A stretch of 46,540 nt of DNA from a virus (IMGVR_UViG_3300034683_000093:1-46540), one strand, 5' to 3'; positions 5,987 through 35,873 are shown, numbered from the stretch's first letter. Program-made: numbers and translations. The notes: a model not told the origin generated them from the letters alone.

Positions 5987-6322
5987 TATAAAGTGCAAGA
6001 AGACACCCACCTCTATAGGTGGGGGATGAATTGCACCTATAGTACATATACCATTTAAACAACCTCCTTTAATAAAGGTAAGTCAGGCAAAAGCCTGTAA
6101 GTCCACTTCGCCAATGTTACAGTAGGTTTTTCAGTAACAGCACTTCTCCTACCCATCAGAGATGTTTAACCATTACCCACAGAGCTTGGAACTTGTGGAG
6201 CATCCCAAGGTGTCTATATATTCTACTGTAACGTAGCTAAAAAGTAATCCTTTTAGCTTAGGCTAATCAACCGAGCTTGTTTTTCTACAAGCCCCCACCT
6301 CTATAGGTGGTGGGTAGTTGAC
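5987..6322 (-). mobile_element. Non-autonomous IscB-derived miniature element (PATE/MITE-like), copy 1
   Basis: Same end hairpins as the iscB element; retains omegaRNA, AAAGGAGG RBS and MVYVL* (6054-6037) fused to the far end; ATAAA flank at 5982-5986. Confidence 0.88.
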
Positions 6323-13853: not shown

Positions 13854-13867
13854 TTTTAAGTCCTCTT

Positions 13868-15278: not shown

Positions 15279-15323
15279 TTTAAGCCTCCTTTTTAGATAA
15301 TCATAACAATAGTTTACAATTTA

Positions 15324-16019: not shown

Positions 16020-16020
16020 A

Positions 16021-16881: not shown

Positions 16882-16882
16882 A

Positions 16883-17851: not shown

Positions 17852-17854
17852 ATA

Positions 17855-19392: not shown

Positions 19393-20291
19393 TTTACAAG
19401 ACCTTTACTGTATATTATATCAAAGTATAAATCATCTTCAATCTCTTTGTATGTACCTAATAATCCGGCACAAACGCAATCTTCTAAGGGACATCGAATA
19501 TAAAAATCATTCAAACTATGTTGACATTTAGTACATACATTCATAGGTGTATAATTCTGATCTATTTCTACTATATTATTATAACAAAGAACTCCTTTTA
19601 ACTTATATAGTTTGTTAAAATAAATATCTAGATCAGATAATAATAAATCACCAAACTTTACATATTTATATTCATAATACCTTAATATATCAATTATTTT
19701 TTGATCTAATTTGTATAAATAGTTATCCAAAACCCTACCATTATTATACAAATATATATATGTATACTTTATACCATTATTTCTAAAAATTGACAAAACT
19801 TTTTCAATATTTTCATTAACAGATTTATCTATAACAATATGAATAAACTTAATTCTATCTTTTAAGTATAATACTTTATTCATTAATTGATCTAAATGTT
19901 GAATCATTGAAAAATGAAATGAAAATATAAAATAGAACTTCTTATATTTTAAAAACTTTTCAAAATAATCAAGTTCTTTGTAACCATTTGAAATAATATA
20001 ATATTCTATACATTTATCATCATTTTCGAAATAATCTAAAAATTTAAATATATTGGGATGCAATGTTGGTTCACCACCAATAAGTAAAGATGTATATCTA
20101 TTATCTATATTCTTTATAATATTTACAGTTTTATCAAAGTTTATAAGAAATAAATTATTTTGTTTACCAATATAACAATATTTACATTTGTAATTACATA
20201 TATTTATAAGACTGATTTGATAATTAACAATATTATGATTTTTTAAATCGTAAAATACATCTTTCAACCATAAATTCTCAATTGATTTCAT
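19389..20291 (-). CDS. Radical SAM protein with C-terminal Cys cluster
   Basis: CNYKCKYC, GGEPTLHP, SNG, C-terminal C...CTKC...CP..CVC; similar layout to 16883-17851. Confidence 0.92.
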   Translation of the reverse strand: MKSIENLWLKDVFYDLKNHNIVNYQISLINICNYKCKYCYIGKQNNLFLINFDKTVNIIKNIDNRYTSLLIGGEPTLHPNIFKFLDYFENDDKCIEYYIISNGYKELDYFEKFLKYKKFYFIFSFHFSMIQHLDQLMNKVLYLKDRIKFIHIVIDKSVNENIEKVLSIFRNNGIKYTYIYLYNNGRVLDNYLYKLDQKIIDILRYYEYKYVKFGDLLLSDLDIYFNKLYKLKGVLCYNNIVEIDQNYTPMNVCTKCQHSLNDFYIRCPLEDCVCAGLLGTYKEIEDDLYFDIIYSKGLVK

Positions 20292-21091
20292 TTTAATGCC
20301 CTCAAAAAATCTATAATGAACTGATCATTTTTTAAATGTAAATATTCAACAGAATCGTTGAATCTTTCTTTTATACCCATTATATCATCAACTTCAAAAA
20401 TAATATTCTTATTAAAATAATGACATTCCTTAATCAGTCTATTTGAACAATCAAATTTATGTTTTGGCCCTGTGTATACATAAGTAACAAATTTATCAAA
20501 TAAATTTTTTATAGGTGGAACTAAAACATTATTATCAAATTTTACATCAGATATTATTATTTTTGGTTCATATTTAACTAAAATATCTTTAACATAATCA
20601 TAAGTTTCATATGGTACATAAAATAAATAATTATCTGATTTATTAGTTGGTGATAAAAGAATATCAAAATATATTTTTTTAACATAATTTATATTTGTAT
20701 AACCAACCCAACTATCATTATAAATCCTATTATCTTGTAAAATATATTTATTAGGAGAAATAATACCTGTTTCTATTTCAACATTTTTACATCTAAATGC
20801 TACATAATTTTTACATAATACTTTTTTCTGACCATAAAACATAAAACCATCAGTAGAAATAATTGTTTCGTATATCTTATTTGGTTCAAAGTTGACAATA
20901 TTATTAATTAGTACTTTTGGATCTATTTTATATCTATACTCTATACATCTTTCTATAAAATCTATATTTACATTTTCTATTAGAAGAACTTTTACATCAA
21001 AATATTGTCTCAAATAATAAAAGTAATCCACCAACTCATAAACATGACCAGAATGTTGAACATTTGATTTACCATATGTTAAATATATCAT
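20288..21091 (-). CDS. Hypothetical protein, GT-B-like paralog family member 1
   Basis: GHVYE, YVKKIYFDI, FDCSNRLIKEC shared with 24013-24846. Confidence 0.6.
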   Translation of the reverse strand: MIYLTYGKSNVQHSGHVYELVDYFYYLRQYFDVKVLLIENVNIDFIERCIEYRYKIDPKVLINNIVNFEPNKIYETIISTDGFMFYGQKKVLCKNYVAFRCKNVEIETGIISPNKYILQDNRIYNDSWVGYTNINYVKKIYFDILLSPTNKSDNYLFYVPYETYDYVKDILVKYEPKIIISDVKFDNNVLVPPIKNLFDKFVTYVYTGPKHKFDCSNRLIKECHYFNKNIIFEVDDIMGIKERFNDSVEYLHLKNDQFIIDFLRALK

Positions 21092-22134
21092 AATTCAAAA
21101 ACCTTCGTAGGATCTTTTATTTTTTTATTAAATATAGTTATTGGAGTATATTCTACATTATAGCTACCTTTTTCAAAACCATCACATATAAACATAAAAT
21201 CACATTTGAAACACTTTTCTCGATATTCAAAAAATTCAAATCTGTGACCAAGTATTATTTTATACATTTCTCTGATTATTTGTATTTTATCAACGCTTAT
21301 ATAATAATCAATATTCTGAAAATCGTAGTCTCTTAAGTAATTGAACAATATGTTCCAATCAGTTAAATCAAATATGTGTTGTAACAAATTATAAATTTTG
21401 TTCCAATGTTTTTTATCTATTAAGCAATATGGAACATATCTTAATCTAAAGTTTTTATCAATATAATCTAAATACTTATTTAAAATAGTAATATTTCTAT
21501 TTCTATTTGAGTATAACTTTTTATCTTTTAACCCCCAATTATTTTCAGGTAATATATGTAAATAATTTATTGGTAATTTGTTTATATAATCAATATACTC
21601 TTCTATAATTTGTATATTTTCATCATTTATAGTTATATTAATAGATAATTTTATATTTGTATGTTTTATAATATTGTCAACTCCTTGCAATACTTTTTCA
21701 ACAAATCCATTTCTACCATATATTTTAGAACTCTTATCAATAGAATGTACAGATATTTTCATTTCTGATATTTTAGTATCTAAAAATTTACAAAATTCCA
21801 AATCATATAATTTAAAACCATTTGTTAATATAGATATATTATCTTTCTTATAGTATTTGTTTGATATATTTAAAATTTCTTCAAGATCTGGATGTATAGT
21901 AAATTCCCCACCAGAAAATTCAATTTTTTCAATTCGTAATAACTTAGCAAACTTTATCTGTTTTTCTATGTCATCTATAGAAATATAATCATCAAAACAT
22001 TTTTGATAACAAAAAGGACATCTTGCATTACATATATTACCTATATCAATCCATGCTTTACTATTAACTGGGTAATTTGTATTAATAACTAAATTATCAT
22101 ATAATCTATCTTTTAAAAATTTATCTATTGACAT
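21088..22134 (-). CDS. Radical SAM protein
   Basis: CNARCPFC, SGGE, TNG, RYVPYC, C-terminal CxxC-x4-CDG. Confidence 0.92.
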   Translation of the reverse strand: MSIDKFLKDRLYDNLVINTNYPVNSKAWIDIGNICNARCPFCYQKCFDDYISIDDIEKQIKFAKLLRIEKIEFSGGEFTIHPDLEEILNISNKYYKKDNISILTNGFKLYDLEFCKFLDTKISEMKISVHSIDKSSKIYGRNGFVEKVLQGVDNIIKHTNIKLSINITINDENIQIIEEYIDYINKLPINYLHILPENNWGLKDKKLYSNRNRNITILNKYLDYIDKNFRLRYVPYCLIDKKHWNKIYNLLQHIFDLTDWNILFNYLRDYDFQNIDYYISVDKIQIIREMYKIILGHRFEFFEYREKCFKCDFMFICDGFEKGSYNVEYTPITIFNKKIKDPTKVFEL

Positions 22135-23029
22135 AAAAGTCTACCACTTTTTTGATAGTATCATTAAACTTTGAACATTTAAAATTATACTTTTCCATAA
22201 ACTTTGATTGTAATGAATATCTAATATCATCATATTTTCTTACATTTTTAAACTGGTAAAGACCTTTGTTATTAAAATGGTTAGATATTATATTAAAAAC
22301 TTCAATAATAGATAATTCTTGCCCAGCTATAAATACTCTTTCTTCATCTATAGTATAATAGTTATCAATCATAAAACCAAGAATTTTACACACATCTTCA
22401 ACATATATCCATTGTCTTTTAGACTTACCATTATTATTTAAATAAGTTAATCGGTTGTTTAAAATATTATTTATAACTAAAGGAATAAATTTATCATAAG
22501 TTTGATATTCCCCATAAACATTTGTAGCATTAATTATTTTGTAATCTATATTGCTAAATCTTTTAAAAATAGATAAATAATACTCTGATACCATTTTAGA
22601 CAAAGAGTAAAAATTAGTAGGATTGTATTTATATTCAGTTTCAATATAAGAATCTTCTTCTAATTCACCAAATACTTCATCGGTAGAAAAGTAAATTAAA
22701 GGAACATTCAAATAATTTGCTAATTCAATTACTTTATTTGTTATTTCAATATTATTTCTAACAGTTTCATTAATATTATCAAATGAATAATCTACATTAC
22801 TTATTGATGCAAAATGAATTATAATTTCTACTTTATTATCTTTCAAATATTGGTAATCATTTTGTGTTAAGAAAACAATATCCTTACATATAGTATTGTC
22901 AATCCTTTTACCAAAGAAATTACATTGTTGTCTATCTATATTAATTATATTATATTTATTGTTATAATATCTATAGAAATTATAACCTATAAATCCATGT
23001 CCACCTGTTATAAGAATATTTTTAGGCAT
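22121..23029 (-). CDS. rfbB: dTDP-glucose 4,6-dehydratase-like
   Basis: TGGHGFIG, S.VD.S, STDEVFG, YSLSK, NVYG.YQ..KFIP, RQWIYVED; start set at ATG 23029. Confidence 0.82.
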   Translation of the reverse strand: MPKNILITGGHGFIGYNFYRYYNNKYNIINIDRQQCNFFGKRIDNTICKDIVFLTQNDYQYLKDNKVEIIIHFASISNVDYSFDNINETVRNNIEITNKVIELANYLNVPLIYFSTDEVFGELEEDSYIETEYKYNPTNFYSLSKMVSEYYLSIFKRFSNIDYKIINATNVYGEYQTYDKFIPLVINNILNNRLTYLNNNGKSKRQWIYVEDVCKILGFMIDNYYTIDEERVFIAGQELSIIEVFNIISNHFNNKGLYQFKNVRKYDDIRYSLQSKFMEKYNFKCSKFNDTIKKVVDFYVNR

Positions 23030-23031
23030 AA

Positions 23032-24009
23032 TCAATACCCCACTTCATCACTGTTTTTATGAAACCCATCACATTCCAAATAGTATGGACAACTATAACA
23101 TTTAGTTTCTCTCTTATAAGTATTTATCCTTTTATCAATAATTCGTTCAATAGATCTATAGTATATAAACTTATCATCTATTAAATCTTCATCTGGTAAA
23201 TCTTTAAAATTATTGTATCTGTAATATGAATAGAATATAGACCAATCTCTTAAATCAAATATATGACCATATAATGTTTTAACACTTTTATGATACTTTT
23301 CATTTATTAAACAATATGGAACATATCTTATATTTACTTCAATATCATTATCAATAAGATCTAAATACTTATTTAACTTATAGATATTTTTATTTCTTTC
23401 TACAAATTGATTATTATCACACCAATTATTTTCAGGTATAAAATTTAACTGTAATGGTTTTATATCATTAATTAATTTAATATAATTTTCAATATCATTT
23501 ATTGATTCTGTTGTCAAGGTATGATTTATTCTAACAATTAAATTATGTTTTTTACATAATTCTATAGCTTTTAAAATTTTCTCAAAAGTTTTTGAATTAA
23601 CAACTGTATTATGAACATATTCTGTCCCATGTAAAGAGAATAAAACTTCATTTAATCCAAAGTCTATAGATTTCTTTAGAAAATCCTCATTAGATAATTT
23701 AACACCATTACTTAAAATAGATACACTTCCGAATAGTTTAGTACTATATTCTAATATTTCAAAATAATTTGGATATATAGTTGGTTCACCACCTGATATA
23801 TCAACTGAGGCCATTTTTAATCTTTTAGCCATATCTATTTGAAATTTTATATTTTCAAAATCAATAATTTTAGTTAGATCATTTTTATAATAACAAAATC
23901 TACATTTAATATTACAAAATGTTCCTATAAATATCCAAGCTCTTTTACATAATTTCATATCTTTATTATATTTTATTTTAAGTTTTAAAGCTTCTAATGA
24001 TGGATTCAT
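23032..24009 (-). CDS. Radical SAM protein (paralog of 21088-22134)
   Basis: CNIKCRFC, SGGEPT, SNG, PENNW, RYVPYC, CxxC-x4-CDG. Confidence 0.92.
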   Translation of the reverse strand: MNPSLEALKLKIKYNKDMKLCKRAWIFIGTFCNIKCRFCYYKNDLTKIIDFENIKFQIDMAKRLKMASVDISGGEPTIYPNYFEILEYSTKLFGSVSILSNGVKLSNEDFLKKSIDFGLNEVLFSLHGTEYVHNTVVNSKTFEKILKAIELCKKHNLIVRINHTLTTESINDIENYIKLINDIKPLQLNFIPENNWCDNNQFVERNKNIYKLNKYLDLIDNDIEVNIRYVPYCLINEKYHKSVKTLYGHIFDLRDWSIFYSYYRYNNFKDLPDEDLIDDKFIYYRSIERIIDKRINTYKRETKCYSCPYYLECDGFHKNSDEVGY

Positions 24010-24012
24010 AAT

Positions 24013-24846
24013 CTATTTTATTAACTCCTTTATAAAATCTTCAATAAAATCATCTTTTTCTAAATCTATAGAATCCAAATCATCTTTTAATCTTATATCT
24101 AAAGCTTTATCAAAATAATCAACCAGAGACATATCGACTTTTTTACCAAAATATTGACATTCTTTAATCAGTCTATTTGAACAATCAAATTTTCTCTTTA
24201 CAGGTGTATAGATATAAGTAGAGAACAAATCGAACATATTATCAACTGGTGGTTTTATTGCATTTGGTAAATAATCACTAATAATTAAAGCATTTTCTAT
24301 TTCATAATATCTATCATATTCTTTAGTATATTTAGTTAAATATAATAAATTATAATTCCAGTTCTTTTCTTTTTTATATTTAATTATATCAAAATAAATT
24401 TTCTTTACATAATCTATAGATTCAAAACCATCAATACCATTATCATATATTCTGTAATCATATAATAAATACTTTTGTTTAGACAAAATATGTTTTCTGA
24501 AATTTTCAGCTATATTACTGCATCTAAATCCTATAAAGATATCAGTAATAAATAAATTATTTCGATCAATCTTTCCATCTGTAGAAAGTATAATTGAATT
24601 ATAGAATTTATTTAACTTTTTAATTTTATAGAAATATGTATTGCTCATTACTATATCTAAAAGATCGTCATTGAAATTATATTTATAAGAAACAATTTTT
24701 CGAAAATTAGTATATGTATTATAGTCAAATAATAAAATCTTAGGTTTAAACTTTCTTAATTTGTACCACATATCTATAACTTCGTAAACATGACCATTAA
24801 CTATAGAATGATTGTCATTTGAATAAGTTATGAACAAGTCTTTCAT
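24013..24846 (-). CDS. Hypothetical protein, GT-B-like paralog family member 2
   Basis: NGHVYE, YVKKIYFDI, FDCSNRLIKEC; ATG at 24846 behind GGAGA. Confidence 0.6.
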   Translation of the reverse strand: MKDLFITYSNDNHSIVNGHVYEVIDMWYKLRKFKPKILLFDYNTYTNFRKIVSYKYNFNDDLLDIVMSNTYFYKIKKLNKFYNSIILSTDGKIDRNNLFITDIFIGFRCSNIAENFRKHILSKQKYLLYDYRIYDNGIDGFESIDYVKKIYFDIIKYKKEKNWNYNLLYLTKYTKEYDRYYEIENALIISDYLPNAIKPPVDNMFDLFSTYIYTPVKRKFDCSNRLIKECQYFGKKVDMSLVDYFDKALDIRLKDDLDSIDLEKDDFIEDFIKELIK

Positions 24847-24930
24847 TTTCAATTATCTCCTAAAATTTGTTTTACATTTTTTAAAGCTCTATCCTCTATA
24901 TTCATATTAATCTGTTTTTCTATTCCATCA
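24844..24930. repeat. 87-bp exact direct repeat, copy A
   Basis: Identical to 25864-25950 (cattttcaattatctcc...ctattccatca). Confidence 0.93.
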
Positions 24931-25043
24931 TTTAATATCATATGTATGTACAATTTACTTTTTGTTACATATGTATTAGAAAATACATATACTAAAGGTT
25001 TATTTTTAATAGATCTAAAAACTAGTAATGACCTTTTCTTCAT
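24849..25043 (-). pseudogene. Chimeric 64-aa remnant ending in a duplicated C-terminus
   Basis: Last 26 aa (DGIEKQINMNIEDRALKNVKQILGDN) identical to the end of 25869-26678. Confidence 0.55.
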
Positions 25044-25044
25044 A

Positions 25045-25866
25045 TTACCACTCTAAATTATACAAATAATAACATTCTTTACAATCTTCTAAATGTAGAC
25101 AAACATCATTATTTAGATACATATTTAATAACTCATATGAAAATTTATATCCTCTATTATTTAAAGATCTACAGCATGGAATAATTATATCTTTTTCTAG
25201 ATCTATTTTAATTTTGTTAATATTAATTTTACAACTAATTAGTAATCTATTATATTTTCTTCTATTTATTACAAAATTAAAATATCTGCTAAATGAAGAA
25301 AAATACTTTTCATCTATATTATACTTTCTAAATATTTTTATACATTGTATAATTTGATCTAAATCTAAATTCCAAGTTCTATCATTTATATCAGATATGA
25401 TATAATATATATCTAAATCTTTATATTTCTTAACAAACTCTTCTAAATATTCTAAATTATATCTATGAACAATTACTACTTTATTAACACATTTAAAACG
25501 TTGTTTAACCATATCCAATTTTTCTACATCTATACCTTTTGATATTTCTTCTGTTATATGATAAATGATAATATCAAATAAATCATTAGGAACTTTATTA
25601 AAATCTGTTCCATTAGTAAATAATTTAAATTTGCAACTATACTTTTTCTTTAGACTTAACAGATTATTGAAAAAATTTTGAGACAATAATGTTGGTTCTC
25701 CACCAGAAATCTCATATATGTGATTATTACCACAAAAGTTAATTATTTGATCAATTTTGTTTAAAATTATATTTTCATCTGGTAATTTATATTTCATACC
25801 AGTTAAATCTGTACAATACGGACAATCCCAATTACATCTCGATAAACATCTTAAACAAATATACAT
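25045..25866 (-). CDS. Radical SAM protein
   Basis: CNWDCPYC, SGGEPT, TNG, C-terminal C...PCC...CKEC; ATG at 25866. Confidence 0.92.
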   Translation of the reverse strand: MYICLRCLSRCNWDCPYCTDLTGMKYKLPDENIILNKIDQIINFCGNNHIYEISGGEPTLLSQNFFNNLLSLKKKYSCKFKLFTNGTDFNKVPNDLFDIIIYHITEEISKGIDVEKLDMVKQRFKCVNKVVIVHRYNLEYLEEFVKKYKDLDIYYIISDINDRTWNLDLDQIIQCIKIFRKYNIDEKYFSSFSRYFNFVINRRKYNRLLISCKININKIKIDLEKDIIIPCCRSLNNRGYKFSYELLNMYLNNDVCLHLEDCKECYYLYNLEW

Positions 25867-25950
25867 TTTCAATTATCTCCTAAAATTTGTTTTACATTTT
25901 TTAAAGCTCTATCCTCTATATTCATATTAATCTGTTTTTCTATTCCATCA
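25864..25950. repeat. 87-bp exact direct repeat, copy B
   Basis: Identical to 24844-24930, 1020 bp apart. Confidence 0.93.
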
Positions 25951-26678
25951 GTTATATCATATCTATTAATATAAATTATTTCTTTATTTAGATACTTACA
26001 TTCTAGAATTAATCTAGGTGAATAATCATAATGTTCTTTTGACTTATATATAAAATACTTTGAAAACTTATTGAAAAAAATTGGAAGATAGTTAAAAAAT
26101 AATTGGTAATTTTCTATATTTTTATATTTGTTCATAAATTTTCTAAATTGGTCTTTTCGAATTAGAATAACTTTTTTATTTTGATAACTATTTAAAATAT
26201 TAACTATATCTTTTATCTCATCATCATTGTATATATCTATATAAGAAATAAGATTAACAAAAATATTATCTTCACAGAAACTAGGTTCTTGAATACCATC
26301 AAACCAAATATACTTTCCAATTTCTTTACCTATATTAACATCATATTTAAAACTACTTGACGTATTAAACCATAATAATTTTTTAAAATTTAAATGTTTT
26401 GTTTTATCTTTAAGAATCATTTCTTTAGATGTTATTAATATATCTATTTCATTATTAAATGAATCTATTATTAAATCTTTGTAAAATACTTTATATCTAT
26501 ATTTTTGTATTTCATATAGATAGTTTTTGTAATTATTGACTAAAAAATATGATTGATAACCATTAAATCTTAAAAACATAGAATAATCTAATAAATCCAA
26601 TATGGTTCCATTTAAGTTAAAGATATCATTAAAACTATAAAAACAAATTATATTGGGTTGTTTAAGAATTCTTTCCAT
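25869..26678 (-). CDS. Hypothetical protein, GT-B-like paralog family member 3
   Basis: NGTILDLLDY and YDYSPRLILEC align with NGHVYE and FDCSNRLIKEC of the paralogs. Confidence 0.55.
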   Translation of the reverse strand: MERILKQPNIICFYSFNDIFNLNGTILDLLDYSMFLRFNGYQSYFLVNNYKNYLYEIQKYRYKVFYKDLIIDSFNNEIDILITSKEMILKDKTKHLNFKKLLWFNTSSSFKYDVNIGKEIGKYIWFDGIQEPSFCEDNIFVNLISYIDIYNDDEIKDIVNILNSYQNKKVILIRKDQFRKFMNKYKNIENYQLFFNYLPIFFNKFSKYFIYKSKEHYDYSPRLILECKYLNKEIIYINRYDITDGIEKQINMNIEDRALKNVKQILGDN

Positions 26679-27361
26679 CTATCTCTCCAATATTCTACAT
26701 TGTTTAATTGATAATAATTATCCAATAAATATTTAACTCCACATCCTTCTGGTGATTTACCAAACAATTCTATTTCACAATTACAATTTATTGCCTCTTT
26801 TATAAAGTTAGGACAAAATTCAAACCAATCATCTACTATAAAATACTTTATATACTTAACATTTTTGAAAAACTCTTCTTTGTTAGTAGTGATATTAATC
26901 TTTGGAAATTTTCTTTTTAAAATAATCATTTCTTTCAAATTACCCATTACATAAAATGGATATATCTCATTATCCTTAAACCATTCTATAAATTTATATA
27001 ATTTGGATGTATTAGGTGTTAGATATGTTCCACAATATTCGTTAACTCTTTGAATCTTAAACTCGTTTGGTACATACATAAATGGAATATTTTCTTTCTG
27101 ACTAACATAATAATTATTAGTAACACATTTATTTCTAATTATTTTTTGATCTGGACCAACAACATAGTAATAATTATCACTATCTGACAATGTTTTAATT
27201 GAAATATTATCAAGATATAAGAAAAATGAACATGTTAAATCCTTTATGCTAATTTTTCGTATACAATAAAAATTTAAGACACTAAAATACTTTTTAAAAA
27301 AAGAACTATTTGACAATGAACCTCTTTTAGTCTCAGAATCATATATAATATTTCTTATCAT
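26648..27361 (-). CDS. Hypothetical protein, distant GT-B-like family member 4
   Basis: FEFCPNFIKEA resembles the acidic-x7-E motif of its neighbours. Confidence 0.5.
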   Translation of the reverse strand: MIRNIIYDSETKRGSLSNSSFFKKYFSVLNFYCIRKISIKDLTCSFFLYLDNISIKTLSDSDNYYYVVGPDQKIIRNKCVTNNYYVSQKENIPFMYVPNEFKIQRVNEYCGTYLTPNTSKLYKFIEWFKDNEIYPFYVMGNLKEMIILKRKFPKINITTNKEEFFKNVKYIKYFIVDDWFEFCPNFIKEAINCNCEIELFGKSPEGCGVKYLLDNYYQLNNVEYWRDRWKEFLNNPI

Positions 27362-28088
27362 AATCTAACCAACTTAATTTTTCCAAGTGTCTTTTGGCTT
27401 CTAAAATTCCATTTAACTTCATTCTTTCACTTTTAATTGTATAACTACTATTATGATTAAACTTATGTCTTGTATAAATATAGAATAAATTATTACTTTC
27501 TAAGTATATTGGATTATCATCATGAAATTGATAATGTCTCTTCATATAAATATGATCTTTATTATTACCAGACTTAAATAAAACAGGAAATAAGACATTC
27601 TTGTCATAATTTTTAAAGAGTAATTTTTTATCGTATAAATAGACTAATACTAATGGATAATATACTTGATAATATGAATGATTAGTTGATATAATTTTCT
27701 TGATTTCTTCTACAAAATAACTAGATAAACCATCATCAGAATCTAATTTAAATTCTATTACATCACTTGTGTAAGTAGTTAAAATATTTCCAATAAAATC
27801 ATCCAATTGTTTAGGATTAACATCATTAGTTTCTATTATTTCAAAATTTAAATTAGAAGACTTCACCAATTTAAAAAATTGATAAAATTTTGGATATTTA
27901 GTATTAGTAAATATTAACCAATTAAAATCATTATCAGTTTGATTAATTAATGATTGTAAAGTTATTTTTTCAAACAACTCTAATCTGTATTCTATATATT
28001 CGTTATTAAACAAAACGGATGGGTCTTTATCATCCCATCCTATATAATATTTACCTGTATTCCAAAGTGTGATTATATTAGTTATCAT
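27339..28088 (-). CDS. Putative rhamnosyltransferase-like GT-A protein
   Basis: RLELFEKITLQSLINQTDNDFNWLI and LDSDD motifs. Confidence 0.75.
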   Translation of the reverse strand: MITNIITLWNTGKYYIGWDDKDPSVLFNNEYIEYRLELFEKITLQSLINQTDNDFNWLIFTNTKYPKFYQFFKLVKSSNLNFEIIETNDVNPKQLDDFIGNILTTYTSDVIEFKLDSDDGLSSYFVEEIKKIISTNHSYYQVYYPLVLVYLYDKKLLFKNYDKNVLFPVLFKSGNNKDHIYMKRHYQFHDDNPIYLESNNLFYIYTRHKFNHNSSYTIKSERMKLNGILEAKRHLEKLSWLDYDKKYYI

Positions 28089-28089
28089 T

Positions 28090-28665
28090 TTATATTTTAC
28101 TCCATGTTTGCCATGTTAGATGTTTAGTAATTATAGATTCATCGGAATTATCACAAAAGTATCTATAATCATTTTCAATTCTTACATTAATATTATCACT
28201 AATAAATATTTCATCATAAAACAATTCAAATACTCTTGGAATTCTATTGATTCTTAAATAAACTTTGTATAAATTTATTAATTTTTGTAAAATATTAGTT
28301 TTTGGTAAACTATATAATACACAATTTTGTAAATATTTAAATTTATCTTTTGATATCATAAAATCAAATTCATAATCATAATTATCCAATGATTTTAAAA
28401 ATATCATATCAACATCAAAATAGAATCCGCCATATTTTTGAATAATATAAATTCTTAAAACATCAGTTAATAATGCTAAATTTTTATTTATTTTATCATT
28501 CTTATAAAATAACTCATAGAACTCTTCAAACTCTTTAATATTAGCATTTGTCCAAAGTATATGGTTATAATTGCTATTAATTCTCTTAGTATTTTCAACT
28601 AAGTCAATTACTTTTTTATTTATTTTACCTAACCATATTTGATGTATTGTTTTTATTTTTTTCAT
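28090..28665 (-). CDS. Glycosyltransferase, DxD sugar-binding (OCH1/GT32-like)
   Basis: IHQIWLG, DVLRIYIIQKYGGFYFDVD, H...TW. Confidence 0.9.
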   Translation of the reverse strand: MKKIKTIHQIWLGKINKKVIDLVENTKRINSNYNHILWTNANIKEFEEFYELFYKNDKINKNLALLTDVLRIYIIQKYGGFYFDVDMIFLKSLDNYDYEFDFMISKDKFKYLQNCVLYSLPKTNILQKLINLYKVYLRINRIPRVFELFYDEIFISDNINVRIENDYRYFCDNSDESIITKHLTWQTWSKI

Positions 28666-28687: not shown

Positions 28688-29326
28688 TTAAAGTTCACCA
28701 ATAATAATTACATCTTTCTTAAGATCTATTTGTGTTGGATCTGTTGCATCAGCTTGATATAAGTTTACTATTTGTGCAATATCACCATTTATTATAGTTA
28801 GTTGAACTTTAAATTCTACATATTTAATAAACTTATTTCTTGTAACTTTAAATTCATCATATATACTGAGATATTTTTCTAGCAAATCTAATAAATTAGC
28901 ATCCCCAGAATTTAAAATCTCTATGTATTTTTCCTCTCTGTTTGTATCAGTAATAAAATACCCTTTAGATGCTAATTCAATTGTTATATATATGTATTCA
29001 GAAAGGATTACCAAATCATCAAAATCATATTGTAAACCAGATAGTCTTGTTTTCTTATACGCATTCAATACAATACTATTGATTTCATTAACAGTTCTTG
29101 GTACTAGTAAGTAAGTTGATGTATCACTTATCTGTGTCAAATCATTTACATATATCTTATTTTCAAGAAAATTATTGTAAATGAAATCGTATACATTAGT
29201 ATCTGTGATAACAACATCATCAGGTGTTGCAGGAGCACTACCATCTGGAACTTCTTTAACATTTTTTAGTTTATACCTAAGTTGTCCATCATAAATTTCT
29301 TTAACAAATGATAATTGATAAGCCAT
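28688..29326 (-). CDS. Hypothetical protein downstream of the Cys-repeat gene
   Basis: 212-aa acidic ORF with strong AGGAGG RBS; no motif recognised. Confidence 0.75.
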   Translation of the reverse strand: MAYQLSFVKEIYDGQLRYKLKNVKEVPDGSAPATPDDVVITDTNVYDFIYNNFLENKIYVNDLTQISDTSTYLLVPRTVNEINSIVLNAYKKTRLSGLQYDFDDLVILSEYIYITIELASKGYFITDTNREEKYIEILNSGDANLLDLLEKYLSIYDEFKVTRNKFIKYVEFKVQLTIINGDIAQIVNLYQADATDPTQIDLKKDVIIIGEL

Positions 29327-29353: not shown

Positions 29354-29686
29354 CATAAAGTGCAAGAAGACACTCACCTCTATAGGTGGGTGTTGAATTG
29401 CACCTATAGTACATATACCATTTAAACAACCTCCTTGAAAGGTAAGTCAGGCTAAAGCCTGTAGGTCCACATCGACAATGTTATGCAGGGTTTTTTGGTA
29501 GTAGCACTTCTCCTACCCCTCAGAGATGTTTAACCACTACCCGCAGAGCATGGAACTTGTGGAGTATCCCATGGTGCCTATATATTCCTGCATAACGTAG
29601 CTAAAGAGTAATCCTTTTAGCTTAGGCTAATCAACTATGGCTTGTTCTTCACAAGCCCCCGCCTCTATAGGCGGTGGGTAGTTGAC
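29354..29686 (-). mobile_element. Non-autonomous IscB-derived miniature element, copy 2
   Basis: Colinear and highly similar to 5987-6322; MVYVL* at 29421-29404; ATAAA flank at 29349-29353. Confidence 0.88.
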
Positions 29687-29705
29687 AAATATTCTTATAC
29701 ACTAA
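29436..29705 (-). ncRNA. Orphan omegaRNA, copy 2
   Basis: Scaffold with compensatory changes relative to copy 1; ends approximate. Confidence 0.8.
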
Positions 29706-30549
29706 CATCATAATTACAGTTACATGTACAATAGTTGCAGTCACATGTACATGCATAATTGCAGTTACAAGTACAATAGTTGCAATCACAAGTACAATAA
29801 TTACAGTTACATGTACAATAGTTGCAATTACATGTACAGTAATTACAGTTACAGACACAATTATTACAATCACATGCACAGTAATCACATTGACAAGTAC
29901 AATAGTTGCATTGGCAATTACAAGATGTATAGTTACAATCACAAGTACAAACGTTGCAATTACATGGGCACGCATCTACATTACAAGTACAATAGTTGCA
30001 ATTACATGTACAATAATTACAGTTACATGTACAATAGTTGCAATTACATGTACAGTAATTACAGTTACATGTACATGAATAGTTACAGTTACATGTACAT
30101 GAATAGTTACAAAAACAGAAACATTCATTTACATCTTCAATTAAATCTTTTATTAGACTAAAATGTGCTTCATTTGTAATAGGTTCATTTGGAGCAATTA
30201 TTGTATCAGTAGCATAAGAAGGTATTTGATGTGTATCTCTATAAGGTCTAATTACTTCAACAAATTTATTTCTTATGTTTCTCCAAACATCTGCTCTGAT
30301 AATTCCACTCAAATTTATATTTAATGGACTATTACCTCTTCTTAATGCTTCTAGGTTTAATTGATCTACAAAATTTGTAAGTTCGCTCAATCTATCAATA
30401 GGATTCTCATCATCCTCTACTAGATTTATAGTAGGAAAAATACTCCTAATATTTCTAGCTGCAACTTGACCAGAATATGCATCACATCTATTAACATGTG
30501 ATGTACAAAATGTTGGTGTGCTATCACTTGAATGAGCATTACATGCCAC
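29695..30549 (-). CDS. Cys-rich repeat protein, candidate radical SAM modification target
   Basis: About 140-aa N-terminal domain plus 138-aa tail of about 19 CxCxCxY units; GTG start at 30549 behind GAGG overlaps the stop of the upstream radical SAM gene. Confidence 0.85.
   Translation of the reverse strand: MACNAHSSDSTPTFCTSHVNRCDAYSGQVAARNIRSIFPTINLVEDDENPIDRLSELTNFVDQLNLEALRRGNSPLNINLSGIIRADVWRNIRNKFVEVIRPYRDTHQIPSYATDTIIAPNEPITNEAHFSLIKDLIEDVNECFCFCNYSCTCNCNYSCTCNCNYCTCNCNYCTCNCNYCTCNCNYCTCNVDACPCNCNVCTCDCNYTSCNCQCNYCTCQCDYCACDCNNCVCNCNYCTCNCNYCTCNCNYCTCDCNYCTCNCNYACTCDCNYCTCNCNYDVSV
29710..30123 (-). repeat. Coding tandem repeat, 21-bp unit (CTCNCNY)
   Basis: Units such as TGTACATGTAACTGTAATTAC/TGTACTTGTAATTGCAACTAT with variation mainly at synonymous positions. 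Confidence 0.93.
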
Positions 30550-31636
30550 GATTAACCTCGTCCATTGCAAATTTTATTTTAGTTAATAAATAAAAGTATT
30601 CACATAAATACTCTTGTACATCAAAATCATTCCATCTTTCAAAATAGTTTTCTTTTTTACTATATTTGTATTTCTTTGCATTACATCTTAAACAAAACAT
30701 ACTTGAACAACTCACACATTTACCAGTTTGTTTTCCAAAATATTCTTTAAATTGCTTTGATCTATTAATTACATCCTCAACAACTGTATCTTTAGCTATA
30801 TTTGTATAAACATGTTCTTCATAATATGAATCTCTATATAAAGCACCATGACATGGAACTATATTTCCATTAGTGTCTATTGATAACATATCCAATCCAG
30901 CTGAACATAATGCTTTATTGGGTCTAAACCATGTAAATTTTTGTTGCCCTGTTTTCATTTCATACTTTGCTATATTAATCAAGCTTTCTTTTAAATCATT
31001 ATAATATTTATTTATTTGTTCTTTTGTAAAATCTAAATCTAAATCTATACTTGGAAAATAATTATTATGTATTGTAATGACATCCAAATATGCCTCATAC
31101 ATATATTTAAAGTCTTCTGGTGCAATAGTACTTTTAATTGTCATAGGTATGTTATTTCTTCTCAATTTCATAATATTTTCTTTAACTAATTTTGCCGAAC
31201 CCTTACCTCTTATATTAACTCTATACTTATCATGAATTGGTTGACCATCATAAGAAACTTGAATAACCATTTTAGGATTACCATTTAATGTTCTTTGTAT
31301 GTTAACATTTTTTAAAAAGCTAATAAATTCATCATCAATAAAATAACCATTAGAGTATATAAAAAATGAAACTCGTTGATCATTCAAATAATATTCTGTT
31401 ATTTTTTGAACTCTTTCTTTTTCTAATAAAGGTTCTCCTCCCCAAAAATTAATAGATAATGTTCCATAATTTTGTTTAAAATATTGAGAGTCCATAAATT
31501 TATCTATAAACTTAAATAAATTATCAAAATCTTCAAATTTCTCATTTCTCATCTTATCGTTTTTAACTTCAAAACAATATAAACATCTTAAATTACAATT
31601 TCTAGTAATATTTATATCCATATGGAAGTTTTTCAT
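30539..31636 (-). CDS. Radical SAM/SPASM-domain protein (peptide-maturase-like)
   Basis: CNLRCLYC, FWGGEP, SYDG, CSAG...G.IVPCH, CxxC-x4-CxxC...C; ATG at 31636 behind AGGAG. Confidence 0.92.
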   Translation of the reverse strand: MKNFHMDINITRNCNLRCLYCFEVKNDKMRNEKFEDFDNLFKFIDKFMDSQYFKQNYGTLSINFWGGEPLLEKERVQKITEYYLNDQRVSFFIYSNGYFIDDEFISFLKNVNIQRTLNGNPKMVIQVSYDGQPIHDKYRVNIRGKGSAKLVKENIMKLRRNNIPMTIKSTIAPEDFKYMYEAYLDVITIHNNYFPSIDLDLDFTKEQINKYYNDLKESLINIAKYEMKTGQQKFTWFRPNKALCSAGLDMLSIDTNGNIVPCHGALYRDSYYEEHVYTNIAKDTVVEDVINRSKQFKEYFGKQTGKCVSCSSMFCLRCNAKKYKYSKKENYFERWNDFDVQEYLCEYFYLLTKIKFAMDEVNRGM

Positions 31637-31658
31637 GGTGTTATTTCTCCTTATTATT

Positions 31659-32501
31659 TTAGAATTGTTGAAAATTGTTTTCAGTATACTTTGGTAATTC
31701 AAATATTCCTTTTGTAGGACTCAAGTATCTGTTTCCATCAAATAATGATTTATCACATTTTTGGCAAACTTGACAAGCCAAACTACATAATATCTTATTA
31801 TACTTTTCAAATATTTTATTCATTGGTTCTCTTAATATAATTTCATAATTCTTACCAAATCTTACTATACCTTTTTGTTTACCAACATAATCATCTAATC
31901 TTTGATAAGCAAAACTATATTTAATTCCTTCTAAATTATTTGGATATCTTTCTAATATTTCAACTGTATCATTTATTATATTTTTCCAATTCAATTCATG
32001 AACAGTATATGATATTCTAAATTGTATATTATCAGTATTCAATTTATTCATTGCATTTTCTACTATTTCTTTAGTTGGACTATTATTAGGAAATACTCTA
32101 TGATCATGACCAGAGCCATCATAAGAAATTTCTAAACTAAGTGGCATTTTCTCTCTTGTATCAATAATTAAATCTTTAAATTTTTGATAAAACTTATCAT
32201 TATTTAATAAAGATCCATTTGTTGTTATAAGAACAGAATATTTATGATCTCTTTCAACACATTGTTCACATAAATATTTAAACATATCAAATTTCAATAA
32301 AGGTTCCCCACCCATTATAACAATTGTAGAAACAGCATCAGATCCTTCTCTTTGTTCTATCTCATCTAAAAATTCATCAATATCTTTTTCTGTTACATCT
32401 TTATGTTGAAAATCTTGAGTCTCTCTAATTGTTCTTTCATAACAATATTGGCATGAAAAATCACATCTTGTTGTTAGATATATAATGTTTGTTTTTTGCA
32501 T
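31659..32501 (-). CDS. Radical SAM protein (short, C-terminal C-x3-CxxCxxC)
   Basis: CDFSCQYC, MGGEP, TTNG, SYDG, CSLACQVCQKC. Confidence 0.92.
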   Translation of the reverse strand: MQKTNIIYLTTRCDFSCQYCYERTIRETQDFQHKDVTEKDIDEFLDEIEQREGSDAVSTIVIMGGEPLLKFDMFKYLCEQCVERDHKYSVLITTNGSLLNNDKFYQKFKDLIIDTREKMPLSLEISYDGSGHDHRVFPNNSPTKEIVENAMNKLNTDNIQFRISYTVHELNWKNIINDTVEILERYPNNLEGIKYSFAYQRLDDYVGKQKGIVRFGKNYEIILREPMNKIFEKYNKILCSLACQVCQKCDKSLFDGNRYLSPTKGIFELPKYTENNFQQF

Positions 32502-32514
32502 TATTAATGCTCCC

Positions 32515-32844
32515 TTACAATATATCTTTTAATTTACCAATAGCATCCTTTACATCATCATCTTCTAAAAGTTTTGTTACTTCTTCTTCTGTAAAAATTT
32601 TATTATTTTGTTGATTGCCACATTTACATTGCCCATTATCACAATTATTATTATTCCCCTGATTACCCATTTGTTCCATAAATTTATTATAATAACCTGT
32701 ACCCTCTATATCAGAACTAACCATAGTTCTAATTATATCAATTAAAACAAATGCATACCCCATCATAATTTCATTAGTTTTAAAACCATTTTCAATTTTT
32801 TCAACCACTTGTGTTAAATCTCTAATAATTTCATATTTTGTCAT
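32515..32844 (-). CDS. Small hypothetical protein with CDNGQCKC motif
   Basis: 109-aa ORF with GGAGG RBS between two radical SAM genes. Confidence 0.75.
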   Translation of the reverse strand: MTKYEIIRDLTQVVEKIENGFKTNEIMMGYAFVLIDIIRTMVSSDIEGTGYYNKFMEQMGNQGNNNNCDNGQCKCGNQQNNKIFTEEEVTKLLEDDDVKDAIGKLKDIL

Positions 32845-32874
32845 AATAATTCCTCCATTATTTTTTATTTATTT

Positions 32875-33972
32875 TTAACCACAATTATTCATAAAACTTT
32901 CTATTATTTGTGTATATAACCTATTGGTCTTTAATTTATTATAAATTCGATAGGATACATCATATAATATATAATATAATTGACACACTGAATCTACTGG
33001 ACCACATTTTTCAAAATTAAATTGTTCCATTTGAGAATATGTGCAACCAGCATTACAAAAATTATAAAGATGACATTTCTTACATTTTTCATAAGTTCTT
33101 GGATCTGAAATTTCTGGCTTCTTTAGAAAATCAAGATTATCCATATATGGTTTATTTTCTTTAGCATCATATAATGGAAACTTTTTGTAACTACCAAATC
33201 TAGCACAAGGATAATACATTCCACCAGGAAAATATCCTATTCCTTTACACCCAGCAAAACAACCAAAAGGCCTTTTACCAAATTTCTTTCCAACTATAAT
33301 ATCAGCTATAGGAAGAATAAAGAAACCTATTGAGCATCTAACACCTTTTTCTATATATTCTATAAATACATTAGCTAATTCTTCTACTTCAACTTTAAAC
33401 TTCTCTATATCTTCTTTAGACCATATATCATCTCTTACCAAACTATAATCGGGATTATATATACCCATATCATCGACTAAAAATTTAAAATTCTTAACCA
33501 TTGTACCAAGAGAAGTTGGTGATACCATTACTTTACATCCTCTTGTCTTCTCAAATAGCCATTTCTTTTCTTTGTATAATTCTAAACTCGAAGTACCATC
33601 TTCCAAAGGTCTATTATACTCATTCCATAAACCATCAAAAGATAAAGATAATCCGCAACCATTAGTTGTTATAAAATTATACTTATCATCATCCAATAAA
33701 AGACCATTTGTTATTAGAACAATAGACCCACAGCGTTTGTCTTGTTTAAATTTTGGAAGGGAATATTTGATAATCTTCCAATTTAGAAGTGGTTCACCAC
33801 CAAAATAAGAAATGTGATAGTTTGGTAAATTATAATAATCAAGAAAAAATCCTACAGTATCAATAAATAAATCTACATCTTCTTCTGTCATAAAGTTTTT
33901 ACTGTTTTCCATATAACAATATTTGCAACCTAAATTACATTTTTCAGTTATAACAAATTCAGTTACTAACAA
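32875..33972 (-). CDS. Radical SAM/SPASM-domain protein (peptide-maturase-like)
   Basis: CNLGCKYC, YFGGEP, ITNG, SFDG, CFAG...YPC, CKKC-x5-C-x3-C...C canonical SPASM spacing. Confidence 0.94.
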   Translation of the reverse strand: MLVTEFVITEKCNLGCKYCYMENSKNFMTEEDVDLFIDTVGFFLDYYNLPNYHISYFGGEPLLNWKIIKYSLPKFKQDKRCGSIVLITNGLLLDDDKYNFITTNGCGLSLSFDGLWNEYNRPLEDGTSSLELYKEKKWLFEKTRGCKVMVSPTSLGTMVKNFKFLVDDMGIYNPDYSLVRDDIWSKEDIEKFKVEVEELANVFIEYIEKGVRCSIGFFILPIADIIVGKKFGKRPFGCFAGCKGIGYFPGGMYYPCARFGSYKKFPLYDAKENKPYMDNLDFLKKPEISDPRTYEKCKKCHLYNFCNAGCTYSQMEQFNFEKCGPVDSVCQLYYILYDVSYRIYNKLKTNRLYTQIIESFMNNCG

Positions 33973-34019
33973 TTTGTTCCCCCTTTTATTTATTTTATAC
34001 CATTAATACAAAAATTTAA

Positions 34020-34170
34020 GAATTAATTATTATTTTTTTTGAACTTCTCCCACTTATAGAAGTGGGAGATTCTCGCTTCATCGGCCTCGTAACCTACTAC
34101 CTCCACGAGCCTCACTTTCGGACGGTTCCCGCCCTAGTGTATTTTTATATAGCTTAATCTTAGTTCTTTT
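34020..34170 (-). ncRNA. Putative TnpB reRNA/omegaRNA with 3' flank-derived guide
   Basis: GC-rich structured segment (GGGCGGGAACCGTCCG, CTCGTGG...TTACGAG stems) between the tnpB tail and the right end; ends approximate. Confidence 0.65.
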
Positions 34171-34264
34171 AATCCTTGTTTAAGTATATTGTTTGCAGCA
34201 TTAATATCTCTATGAGCAATTCATCTCCCACCTAAAGAGGTGGGAGTCTTCTTGCTTATTTACG
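34039..34264 (-). mobile_element. Non-autonomous tnpB-derived miniature IS200/IS605 element
   Basis: TTTAT flank, left hairpin CTCCCACCTC-TTTA-GGTGGGAG related to the IscB element ends, right hairpin TCTCCCACTT-CTAT-AAGTGGGAGA ending GTTCAA. Confidence 0.85.
34134..34214 (-). pseudogene. tnpB: TnpB C-terminal fragment
   Basis: Manual translation HRDINAANNILKQGLKELRLSYIKIH* matches the TnpB RuvC-III RDxNAAxNI motif. Confidence 0.85.
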
Positions 34265-35873
34265 ATAAAATAACTACTTCAATCAATTGTTCATCATCTG
34301 TATCTTTTGTTTCTAAAGCTTTAGCAAATATTCTACCTGCAATATCTATATTTTTAACTAAAGAAGATGAATATAATCCAACTGCACAACCATTTAAATA
34401 TGATACCAATGGCTCACCTTTCTTAACTTTTCCTTTAACCTTACATTTAACTCTTCCTTTTAAAGCTATATATGTTCCATTTTCTAATCCACTATTCATC
34501 ATAAATGCAGGATTTTCTGATACGACACCTAATACTCTATATGATGATATTTCATTAGATATTTCACAATCAAAATTTTCATCTTCACTTATTAAAATTA
34601 CATCACCAACATTTACATTAGAATCTTTTATAGTATATTTTTCTGCTAAGTCTGCATAGTATGCACTTGTTGCAATACCATAAAATACACCATCATTTGA
34701 TATATACGATATTGTTCCAGAAGAATTTCTAAATTCTATAATATTACCACTTGAACCAGTCCTAACATATGTTGTTCCACTATTATTATTTAAATACAAA
34801 TGTTCATGAGAGTTATCGATTACAGATAAACTAATTGTTGTATCGGTTAAATTCGTAATAATACCTTGACCGGTTACATCACCAGTAAATGTTAATTTAA
34901 AATCATTAACATCAAAATTTAATTTACCAGCAGTATCATTATATGTTACAGTTATACCATTCTCCGTATTACCACTAACCATTCCACCAACTGTATCTTC
35001 AACAGCTTCTTTCCAATCGGTAATATCTCCAGATGTCCAATTATGATTATCAACATATGACTTAGATGTAGCGTGATTACTATCTGTAGGACTAGTTGGC
35101 ACTTTTATATGTAATGGTGTACCATCTATTAATTTACCTTTCCAAGAATCATCAGATTCATCAAATATCCATTGAGCATTAGTTAAAGTTCCTCTTTCAA
35201 CTTCTAATCCTGAAATAGACCCTAATGATGAAACACCACTACCACCCTCACCCTGATTCAAAACAATGACATTATCAGTTATAGCAGTATTAGCAGAATC
35301 TATAGTAGTTGTAGTTCCATTTACAGTAAGATTACCTTGAACAACCATATCATCATCAAAAACATAGGCACCATTAATGTTCATATCTCGTAAGGTATTT
35401 CTTGGCCAATCAGCAGAACTTGTATACTCTCTTACATATGTTCCAGAAGGATCTTGTGTTGATAGTGATCCAGATACAAATTGTATACTACTATTAACTT
35501 CTACATATCCTAGAATTAAATGTGAATCATGTACAAAACTTGATATAGGAACTATATCTAACTTTGACACCATTGGTGGATATATTTTTTCATATTTATA
35601 TTCTAGAACTATTAAATTACCACCAGCTTGTGCTCTTGTTTCAGAAATATCTAAACTAATAGGTTGGGTATAATGTATAAGAACATAATCTTTTAAAACC
35701 ATCCCTGCACTTATATCTAAAATAGTAGAACTGTTCCATGTTGGAACCAATCCACTTAATATAAGTCTACCATTAGGTGCAACAATGGATGTTAATCTAT
35801 CAACTTTATCACTATGATATGATTCATATGGGTCAACATATCTTCTTTGTATAATACTCCAATCTATAGGCAT
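34260..35873 (-). CDS. Tail fibre/virion structural protein with C-terminal peptidase G2/intramolecular-chaperone-like domain
   Basis: GNLTVNGTTT, GLEVERG, ATSKSYVD fibre motifs; C-terminal YADLAEKY...GVVSENPAFMMN...IALKGRVKCKV. Confidence 0.75.
   Translation of the reverse strand: MPIDWSIIQRRYVDPYESYHSDKVDRLTSIVAPNGRLILSGLVPTWNSSTILDISAGMVLKDYVLIHYTQPISLDISETRAQAGGNLIVLEYKYEKIYPPMVSKLDIVPISSFVHDSHLILGYVEVNSSIQFVSGSLSTQDPSGTYVREYTSSADWPRNTLRDMNINGAYVFDDDMVVQGNLTVNGTTTTIDSANTAITDNVIVLNQGEGGSGVSSLGSISGLEVERGTLTNAQWIFDESDDSWKGKLIDGTPLHIKVPTSPTDSNHATSKSYVDNHNWTSGDITDWKEAVEDTVGGMVSGNTENGITVTYNDTAGKLNFDVNDFKLTFTGDVTGQGIITNLTDTTISLSVIDNSHEHLYLNNNSGTTYVRTGSSGNIIEFRNSSGTISYISNDGVFYGIATSAYYADLAEKYTIKDSNVNVGDVILISEDENFDCEISNEISSYRVLGVVSENPAFMMNSGLENGTYIALKGRVKCKVKGKVKKGEPLVSYLNGCAVGLYSSSLVKNIDIAGRIFAKALETKDTDDEQLIEVVILS

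Follow-up and report, generated by a model that had tools for sequence, protein, structure and literature searches.

A conserved phage module pairs a cysteine-heptad protein with radical SAM enzymes that may staple it into a virion fiber

Why should a virus carry three genes for radical S-adenosylmethionine (SAM) enzymes beside a gene for a protein that ends in a long run of cysteine heptads? This question is raised by IMGVR_UViG_3300034683_000093:1-46540, a linear record of a large uncultured phage, which is estimated to be 18% complete and whose 46,540 nucleotides are referred to here as the window. We found that the pairing of the repeat gene with radical SAM genes is a conserved phage module. 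We propose that radical SAM/SPASM enzymes staple the Cys-heptad protein by thioethers from Cys to Asn or Asp and that the product is built into a trimeric fiber or spike of the virion, a combined reading that we put at slightly less than an even chance. Its parts differ in strength: the repeat is very probably the substrate of the neighboring enzymes, the product is probably a virion fiber, and, given the repeat as substrate, the reaction is fairly likely to be thioether formation. Dozens of phage lineages have retained the pairing, as have cultured Campylobacter phages, and the phage therefore likely staples a protein of its own.

The proposed substrate is encoded at 29695..30549 (minus strand). 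Its 284 residues comprise a short N-terminal Cys/His segment, a three-helix domain, and 19 units of the type CxC[N/D/Q]CNY. The open reading frame (ORF) at 29695-30570 (minus strand) holds 291 residues, and the repeat begins at its residue 150. Judged from the sequence, GTG at 30549, which has GAGG 6 nt upstream and overlaps the stop of the upstream gene, is a more likely start than TTG at 30570. An earlier note on this DNA had counted about 19 heptads, 138 residues, and about 56 Cys. This count was confirmed: 18 CxCxC units and one broken unit (CTCNVDA), with 56 Cys in all, span 138 residues and are followed by a DVSV tail, the protein ending in CNYDVSV. The strict form CxCxCxY is found in 16 units and the exact heptad CTCNCNY in 9, and a search of all six frames detected only two isolated CxCxC matches elsewhere in the window. 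At the DNA level, 14 distinct units encode 8 distinct peptide units, and third codon positions hold 422 of the 705 pairwise base differences among units, indicating a selected coding repeat. Contigs from run X2 were identical to the window over 29824-30069 and 30083-34215, and on the strength of these matching independent contigs and the codon-position pattern an artefact reading was rejected. Runs with at least half of the sequence words of the stretch came from three studies, one of wastewater, one of an oil production facility, and one of the subsurface that may include the source; none of the listed runs sharing its words was an RNA data set.

No relatives were detected when the N-terminal domain or the complete protein served as a single query sequence; the family was reached only through DNA-pattern and profile searches. 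The window protein belongs to PHROG 26958 (profile E 5e-29), the family of CPT_0180 from phage CP220. The family profile had no match among PDB sequences, and the NCBIfam models of CXXX targets matched neither the window protein nor 13 other Cys-rich proteins. AlphaFold modeled the monomer, at low confidence (pLDDT 63, pTM 0.45), as three helices followed by a seven-residue beta-roll. A Foldseek search of the PDB and BFVD with this model gave nothing at E<=0.001. The best VIA fold match was the heptad beta-roll ice-binding protein 3ULT (Z 10.2, root-mean-square deviation 8.3, 108 aligned residues); because this lies within the range of common repeat arrangements, no function was inferred from it. 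A three-copy complex prediction (score 0.00, mark 0.42) gave no evidence either way.

The presence of three radical SAM genes, two of them of the SPASM type, had been claimed in the earlier note and was borne out, since all three genes are intact and exceed the PF04055 cut-off. rA (32875..33972, minus strand, 365 residues) has seven invariant SPASM Cys (C238, C256, C297, C300, C306, C310, and C330) and no RiPP recognition element (RRE; RiPP, ribosomally synthesized peptide with post-translational modifications). rC (30539..31636, minus strand, 365 residues from an ATG behind AGGAG) likewise has seven invariant SPASM Cys and no N-terminal RRE. rB (31659..32501, minus strand, 280 residues) is without a full SPASM domain and carries an invariant C-terminal Cx3Cx2Cx2C motif. 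CxxxCxxC, beginning at residue 12-15, and GGE were invariant in all three enzymes across alignments of 18 (rA), 21 (rB), and 22 (rC) orthologs. No Pfam match of the PqqD type, which would indicate a stand-alone RRE, was detected in the two small proteins encoded nearby (109 and 212 residues). In profile searches of the PDB, CteB (5WGG) was the best match for both rA (E 3e-35) and rC (E 2e-25), ahead of anSME (2e-19 and 4e-13, respectively). The alignments begin at about CteB residue 100, indicating that the N-terminal region of CteB is missing in rA and rC.

We compared the enzymes with NCBIfam models of known maturases. The top model for all three was PapB, with 131 (rA), 92 (rC), and 65 (rB) bits against a cut-off of 340; rA scored 87 bits against 425 for SCIFF. 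rC scored 53.5 bits against 525 for TIGR04463 (CrpC), a model absent from the 25 best families for rA and rB. Scores for the CXXX maturase TIGR04115 (cut-off 350) were 75 (rC), 50, and 40 bits. The anSME model TIGR03942 (cut-off 349) gave 45 and 61 bits, and the SPASM Cys number seven rather than the eight of anSME. ChlB, anSME, YydG, and DynA-type models were among the lower matches.

If the enzymes act on the repeat, the two should travel together, and the earlier note had held that homologs commonly occurring without radical SAM neighbors would speak against the idea. Instead, linkage was tight in both directions. On the repeat side, IMG/VR was searched with a DNA pattern for the repeat that is blind to the enzymes, giving 66 loci; one (L099) was dropped for lack of an ORF fitting the rule, and the other 65 represent 34 lineages. 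Orthologs of rA, rB, or rC were present in the locus in 29 of the 34 lineages, rA with rC in 24 and all three in 20, and in 26 of the 27 lineages with at least 5 kb on both sides. In four of the five negative lineages a contig end interrupts the locus; full-length relatives are available for two of these, with the enzymes 3-6 kb downstream. The enzyme hidden Markov models were partly built from the counted loci; BLAST with the window proteins agreed. Among 185,579 species genomes (GTDB), the repeat pattern occurred at seven places. Four were phage-like contigs in metagenome-assembled genomes, and each of the four bins holds an ortholog of rA, in one case truncated at a contig end. The other three matches (two in Campylobacter concisus, one in Lactobacillus) contained no repeat ORF and were dismissed as chance.

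On the enzyme side, a single-protein locus search with rA gave no result, and an rA profile, from which the best 80 of at least 384 viral and the best 80 of 214 metagenome relatives were taken, gave 78 loci in viruses and 80 in metagenomes. Among the rA loci listed, the 114 scoring at least 300 bits formed 60 clusters, 39 of which carry a repeat gene; where at least 5 kb of downstream sequence was present, the repeat gene was there in 35 of 40. One of the five exceptions (G006) has its repeat gene elsewhere in the genome and a second (L139) is cut upstream. As a control, 92 loci of distant radical SAM genes only, not dereplicated, were inspected; 4 held tandem CxC[NDQH], and 2 more matched the N-terminal domain of the family. 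Dispersed genes, with both parts still in the genome, were found in Firehammervirus, G005, G006, and G007; in G007 the repeat gene and rC stand together and rA and rB about 38 kb away. Intermediate rA relatives (150-300 bits) accompany variant repeats, for example six-residue CxCNxD units, some of which are followed by a Peptidase_S74 (S74) domain. A gene for an A-type Fe-S carrier (HesB/IscA) lies directly after rA at L046:9929-10258 (Pfam) and, by eye, at L334:3103-3435.

Some distant phage radical SAM clusters lie beside Cys-rich proteins with other repeat grammars, certain of which share the helical N-terminal domain (L148, L155, L162, L172, L205, L213-L216, L221, L245, and L247), hinting at a wider superfamily. 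In one clade (L057, L059, L089, and L102) the Cys gene follows giant Gly-Ser-Ala repeat proteins of 1500-2000 residues, and at L067:11600-12281 an acyl carrier protein gene (Pfam PP-binding) and a possible dehydratase-like gene lie beside a 28-unit Cys protein.

We then asked what the substrate family has kept. Its profile collected 270 clusters (50% identity) at E<=1e-10 and 424 at 1e-3, with proteins of 140-850 residues. The top 150 members have 3 to 18 units, most often 4 (74 proteins), spaced by 7 (413 cases) or 8 (292 cases) residues. In each unit, C-x-x-[N/D/Q] occurs at positions 1-4 and again at 3-6, with Asn the usual residue: of about 890 units, 848 have N, D, or Q at position 4 and 837 have N or D at position 6. 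Since these are the residue types linked by QhpD-like enzymes, this supports thioether formation. Cys5 is present in 878 of 892 units and Tyr7 in 90%, Phe replacing Tyr in some lineages; the idea that Cys5 is dispensable held only for distant variants and not for the core family. In 148 proteins the motif G-x2-I-x-A-x3-N-x-L-x3-I-N precedes the first Cys by a constant 22 residues, and it is kept even where the remaining N-terminal part is unrelated. The family includes a minimal helix-plus-repeat protein of 56 residues (L281) and tandem paralogs (L014). Many members (L270, L271, L290, L311, and L063) have N-terminal CxxH arrays before the helical domain, of which the window protein has a short version.

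The C-terminal tails of many relatives may point to the virion. Six of 11 scanned Cys homologs, all of them long-tailed, matched S74 over the cut-off directly after the last Tyr. Among the top 150 members, 20 have a full S74-like tail and 64 a 12-residue SDxxxK stub (84 of 150 together), in 47 the protein stops no more than 12 residues after the last unit, and the remaining 19 have other tails. In 6 of 17 distinct stub loci (L024, L027, L029, L079, L009, and L103) the S74 remainder is a separate gene of about 90 codons, and both of the two remainders tested exceeded the Pfam cut-off; at L270:13563-14072 the remainder is instead fused in front of another repeat block. According to the available part of PMC10769870, S74 is a chaperone-protease that ensures that beta-helical spikes of phages form trimers and that cuts at the SDxxxK serine. 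A Gly-rich tail-fiber domain is inserted in one member (P0182). Hint- or intein-like domains follow the repeat in place of S74 in P0162 and P0179 (weak matches), and in one member the Hint_2 match in this position scored 27.2 bits, just under the cut-off of 28.4. A Hint reading of the tail of L303:11020-12630, made by eye, was given up, as Pfam gave no match and inteins matched only at E>1.

The system also occurs in cultured phages. Fifteen records of cultured Firehammervirus phages, which infect Campylobacter, carry orthologs of rA, rB, and rC and a repeat gene, at dispersed sites, and this genus supplied 15 of 28, 17 of 45 (second-place matches included), and 15 of 21 annotated-phage records in the three enzyme searches. 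rA is 46% identical to CPT_0023, rC 35% to CPT_0184, and rB 30% to gp099 of CP220. CPT_0180 of this phage has 534 residues with six CxC[D/N]CNY units and the same pre-repeat helix as the window protein; it differs in a larger N-terminal part, extra spaced CxC[N/D] motifs, and gene dispersal, the rC ortholog lying 2.2 kb away and those of rA and rB elsewhere in the genome. The 212-residue protein also has an ortholog in Firehammervirus genomes. As far as the available text of Timms 2010 (PMC2853527) goes, it reported a 21-bp repeat in the 'hypothetical' CPT_0180 gene and an unusual number of radical SAM genes and did not link the two. In CP21 and WX1 the Cys-repeat gene (L004, CP21_105) is annotated 'putative N-acetylneuraminate pyruvate lyase', an annotation that no Pfam family backs in the CP220 ortholog.

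Taken stepwise, the proposed mechanism is as follows. rA and rC, helped by rB, would recognize the three-helix domain in place of a leader/RRE pair, its last helix being set at a fixed distance before the first Cys. They would then link Cys1 to Asx4, Cys3 to Asx6, or both, in each unit. In many relatives, the observed S74 domain, which is either intact or divided between two genes, would cut back the C-terminus at Tyr/Ser, while other copies end genetically at the repeat. Remaining Cys might bind metal or form disulfides. A broader form of the proposal, possible but on balance doubtful, is that a widespread class of large myophages including Firehammervirus makes its fiber rod a polymer in which radical-SAM-installed thioether rings recur dozens of times and the spare Cys perhaps hold metal. 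In the same broader form, a helical leader without an RRE would direct the chemistry and a self-cleaving chaperone would finish it, which would make RiPP chemistry a structural material of viruses.

The closest known system is CrpC/CrpA of Methanococcus voltae (TIGR04463), in which, according to the available part of PMC13692751, ranthionine links are introduced into a Cys-repeat protein of 28.8 kDa by a SPASM enzyme with seven Cys; the CrpA repeats carry C-X-X-Q/D motifs, and the thioethers were demonstrated by mass spectrometry. The CrpC spacing given there (C333-C352, C390-C393-C399-C403-C422) parallels that of rA. In both systems the adjacent protein is large, and its N-terminal domain is followed by Cys repeats at the C-terminus with motifs of the C-X-X-Q/D type, Asn being the usual last residue in the phage units. 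However, CrpC is archaeal, has an RRE, and acts alone on a 17-residue unit, whereas the window system is from a phage and has three enzymes without an RRE, its units are 7-8 residues long and hold three Cys, and relatives have S74-type tails. In that source, 'phage' and 'viral' are absent from the main text and 'phage' and 'virus' from three supplements, as far as these were available. CteB (SCIFF, 5WGG), PapB (NF047865), and QhpD are the best structural or model relatives of rA and rC and have the same SPASM Cys spacing; QhpD links Cys to Asp or Glu in a protein subunit, and canonical SPASM domains have eight Cys (both from part of PMC13692751).

Other comparisons set the system apart. Ranthipeptide substrates are short leader-core peptides, whereas this is a family of 140-850-residue proteins, and the window protein, with about 140 of its residues in the helical domain, does not match the short precursor form; ranthipeptide maturases have an N-terminally fused RRE, in contrast to rA, rB, and rC. 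The CXXX-repeat system (TIGR04115) shares the combination of a radical SAM/SPASM enzyme with a periodic Cys-repeat target but has a different grammar, the motif here being CxCxC at a spacing of 7 or 8. PF27846 was found in 19% of one Atlas cluster (score 0.85) and is a lead only. S74 fibers and spikes such as K1F endosialidase, the T5 fiber, and Bdellovibrio MAT proteins (PMC10769870, in its available part) share an SDxxxK S74 domain after the repeat with many homologs, but here the chaperone is often reduced to a 12-residue stub with its remainder encoded separately, a Cys repeat tied to radical SAM enzymes makes up the body, and the window copy has no S74. By cut-off, RRE, or precursor form, the system is not a member of the PapB, SCIFF, CXXX-repeat, CrpC, or anSME family, but it most likely works like CrpC or QhpD on a protein. 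A literature search, from which subscription journals were mostly outside, found no paper describing the phage system, nor is it described in the available parts of PMC12801897, PMC3322345, PMC4546147, PMC12398825, and PMC11118758.

Several observations weigh against a thioether-stapled fiber. Conservation of Cys5 and Tyr7 equals that of the proposed donor and acceptor residues and is not explained by i to i+3 thioethers, and the presence of three enzymes suggests more than one reaction. In the predicted beta-roll, Cys(i) and Asx(i+3) would lie on opposite faces, a poor fit for i to i+3 rings; the same tension between beta-roll and thioethers is noted for CrpA in the available part of PMC13692751. 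None of the NCBIfam cut-offs was reached by rA, rB, or rC, and because all scores are far below them, the reaction type is extrapolated from about 25% identity. Linkage is also not complete, as L049 encodes a 17-unit protein with no radical SAM gene on its 43.8-kb contig (a record 23% complete; a local exception), and L109, L279, and L300 have the enzymes and no nearby repeat gene. As for the virion appendage suggested in the earlier note, relatives with S74 chaperones and the Gly-rich fiber domain speak for it, but the window copy does not: its Cys protein has no S74 and no SDxxxK stub, and no S74 was detected in six frames of the window, so the fiber argument here rests on homology. The Hint-like domains that replace S74 in some members imply that C-terminal release, and not trimer folding, may be the point. 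Finally, CPT_0180 is absent from the 11 identified gel bands of CP220, a short list and thus a weak point.

In a rival reading, the modified repeat is not a virion part but acts in the infected cell or lysate as a RiPP-like metal scavenger, redox buffer, or anti-defense factor, its C-terminus freed by S74 or Hint. The 56-residue protein and the tandem paralogs look like leader-core precursors, S74 and Hint-like domains both occur after the repeat, CPT_0180 is missing from the CP220 bands, and metal binding has been suggested for CrpA (PMC13692751, in part). We nevertheless consider this unlikely, since S74 is known from trimeric fibers and spikes (PMC10769870, in part), fiber and virion genes are among the neighbors, a fiber domain is inserted in P0182, and neither a peptidase nor a peptide exporter was detected among the 44 ORFs of the window, itself an incomplete record.

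A different radical reaction, namely Tyr C-C cross-linking, epimerization of every other residue to a D/L beta-helix, or conversion of Cys to formylglycine, seems rather unlikely. CteB and PapB rank first for rA and rC, the SPASM domains have seven Cys against eight in canonical fully ligated domains, and Phe takes the place of Tyr in some lineages, although such a reaction would accommodate the nearly invariant Cys5 and Tyr7, the three different enzymes, and the ChlB, anSME, YydG, and DynA-type models among the lower matches. Least of all do we expect an unmodified fiber core that binds metal or Fe-S with its CxCxC face inward, the enzymes making the cofactor or acting on a product of the nearby glycosylation block: three Cys per unit on one face would suit metal binding (CxC motifs also occur in metallothioneins), the predicted heptad beta-roll would fit, an Fe-S carrier gene lies inside the L046 cluster, and four downstream genes have homologs in 12-14 of the 34 lineages, but rA and rC resemble peptide maturases, the enzymes are linked to the repeat gene more tightly than the downstream block is, and the carrier is equally explained by the enzymes' own clusters.

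If the repeat is stapled into a fiber, radical SAM peptide-stapling chemistry, otherwise known from antibiotic peptides, would act on a protein of a virus particle. The window adds a long form that lacks the chaperone and a connection to Campylobacter phages in culture. For the Campylobacter group II phages, whose 11-12 radical SAM genes were called highly unusual in 2010 (PMC2853527, in its available part), it provides a concrete candidate substrate for 3 of these genes. Because Firehammervirus phages are cultured (as biocontrol candidates), the idea is directly testable on purified virions. Peptide macrocyclization, too, would gain new tools in RRE-less enzymes that handle tandem arrays of 4 to 28 units.

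Two small genes accompany the cluster. The 212-residue protein (28688..29326, minus strand; PHROG 25260), outside the span of the earlier note, is encoded usually directly after the Cys gene and was found in 25 of the 34 lineages; this recurrence indicates that it belongs to the system. It is possibly an assembly chaperone or a substrate adaptor; fold searches with its model gave only generic helical matches (best Z 6.8), and a likeness to tail-fiber chaperones was seen by eye only. A small acidic protein of 109 residues is encoded between rB and rA (32515..32844, minus strand). The gene of this small CDNGQCKC protein is present as noted earlier, but it is no conserved Cys component, since a similar motif occurs in 5 of 58 distinct small genes at this place; relatives commonly have a gene for 60-200 residues after rA, with variable sequence and Cys motif. 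CP220 gp020 was considered as its ortholog and rejected (no significant match, E 0.095).

Just upstream of the cluster, a fiber-like protein of 537 residues (34260..35873, minus strand) matches PHROG 22593 and 30390, both of unknown function, and has a homolog inside the locus in 7 of the 34 lineages. Its C-terminal ADLAE motif resembles what we take to be the G2-type autocleaving chaperone class. A small insertion at about 34036-34263 separates rA from this gene, with an empty-site joint in run X6; it resembles an IS200/605 end. The location in a tail module, as first described, holds loosely: PHROG matches to fiber and virion proteins are found upstream and a gene for a contractile tail sheath downstream, but the cluster and the sheath-side genes are set about 19 kb apart by genes for glycosylation and radical SAM enzymes. 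This block (9930-28665, 19 kb) contains five further radical SAM genes (the window has eight matches), glycosyltransferases, NDP-sugar epimerases, a DegT aminotransferase, and a PIG-L deacetylase. The four genes counted above (20288-22134 and 23032-24852) have their homologs within 8 kb of the repeat gene, and the block may therefore decorate the same protein.

A nuclease-less HEARO (IscB-type) RNA insertion (29461..29686, minus strand, 159 bits) lies between the Cys gene and the 212-residue gene and is not part of the system; HEARO-free strains in runs X7 and X5 show empty-site joints from 29330/29353 to 29687. In all, the window contains three HEARO RNAs (1484-1703, 6097-6322, and 29461-29686), two of them nuclease-less and one preceding an RRXRR/HNH IscB-type gene (156-1463). 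Promoter-like sites in the window numbered 57, against 59.6 expected by chance. A 91-nt duplication, 99% identical between 24844-24934 and 25864-25954, gives the 64-residue ORF at 24849-25043 and the ORF at 25869-26678 a shared C-terminus.

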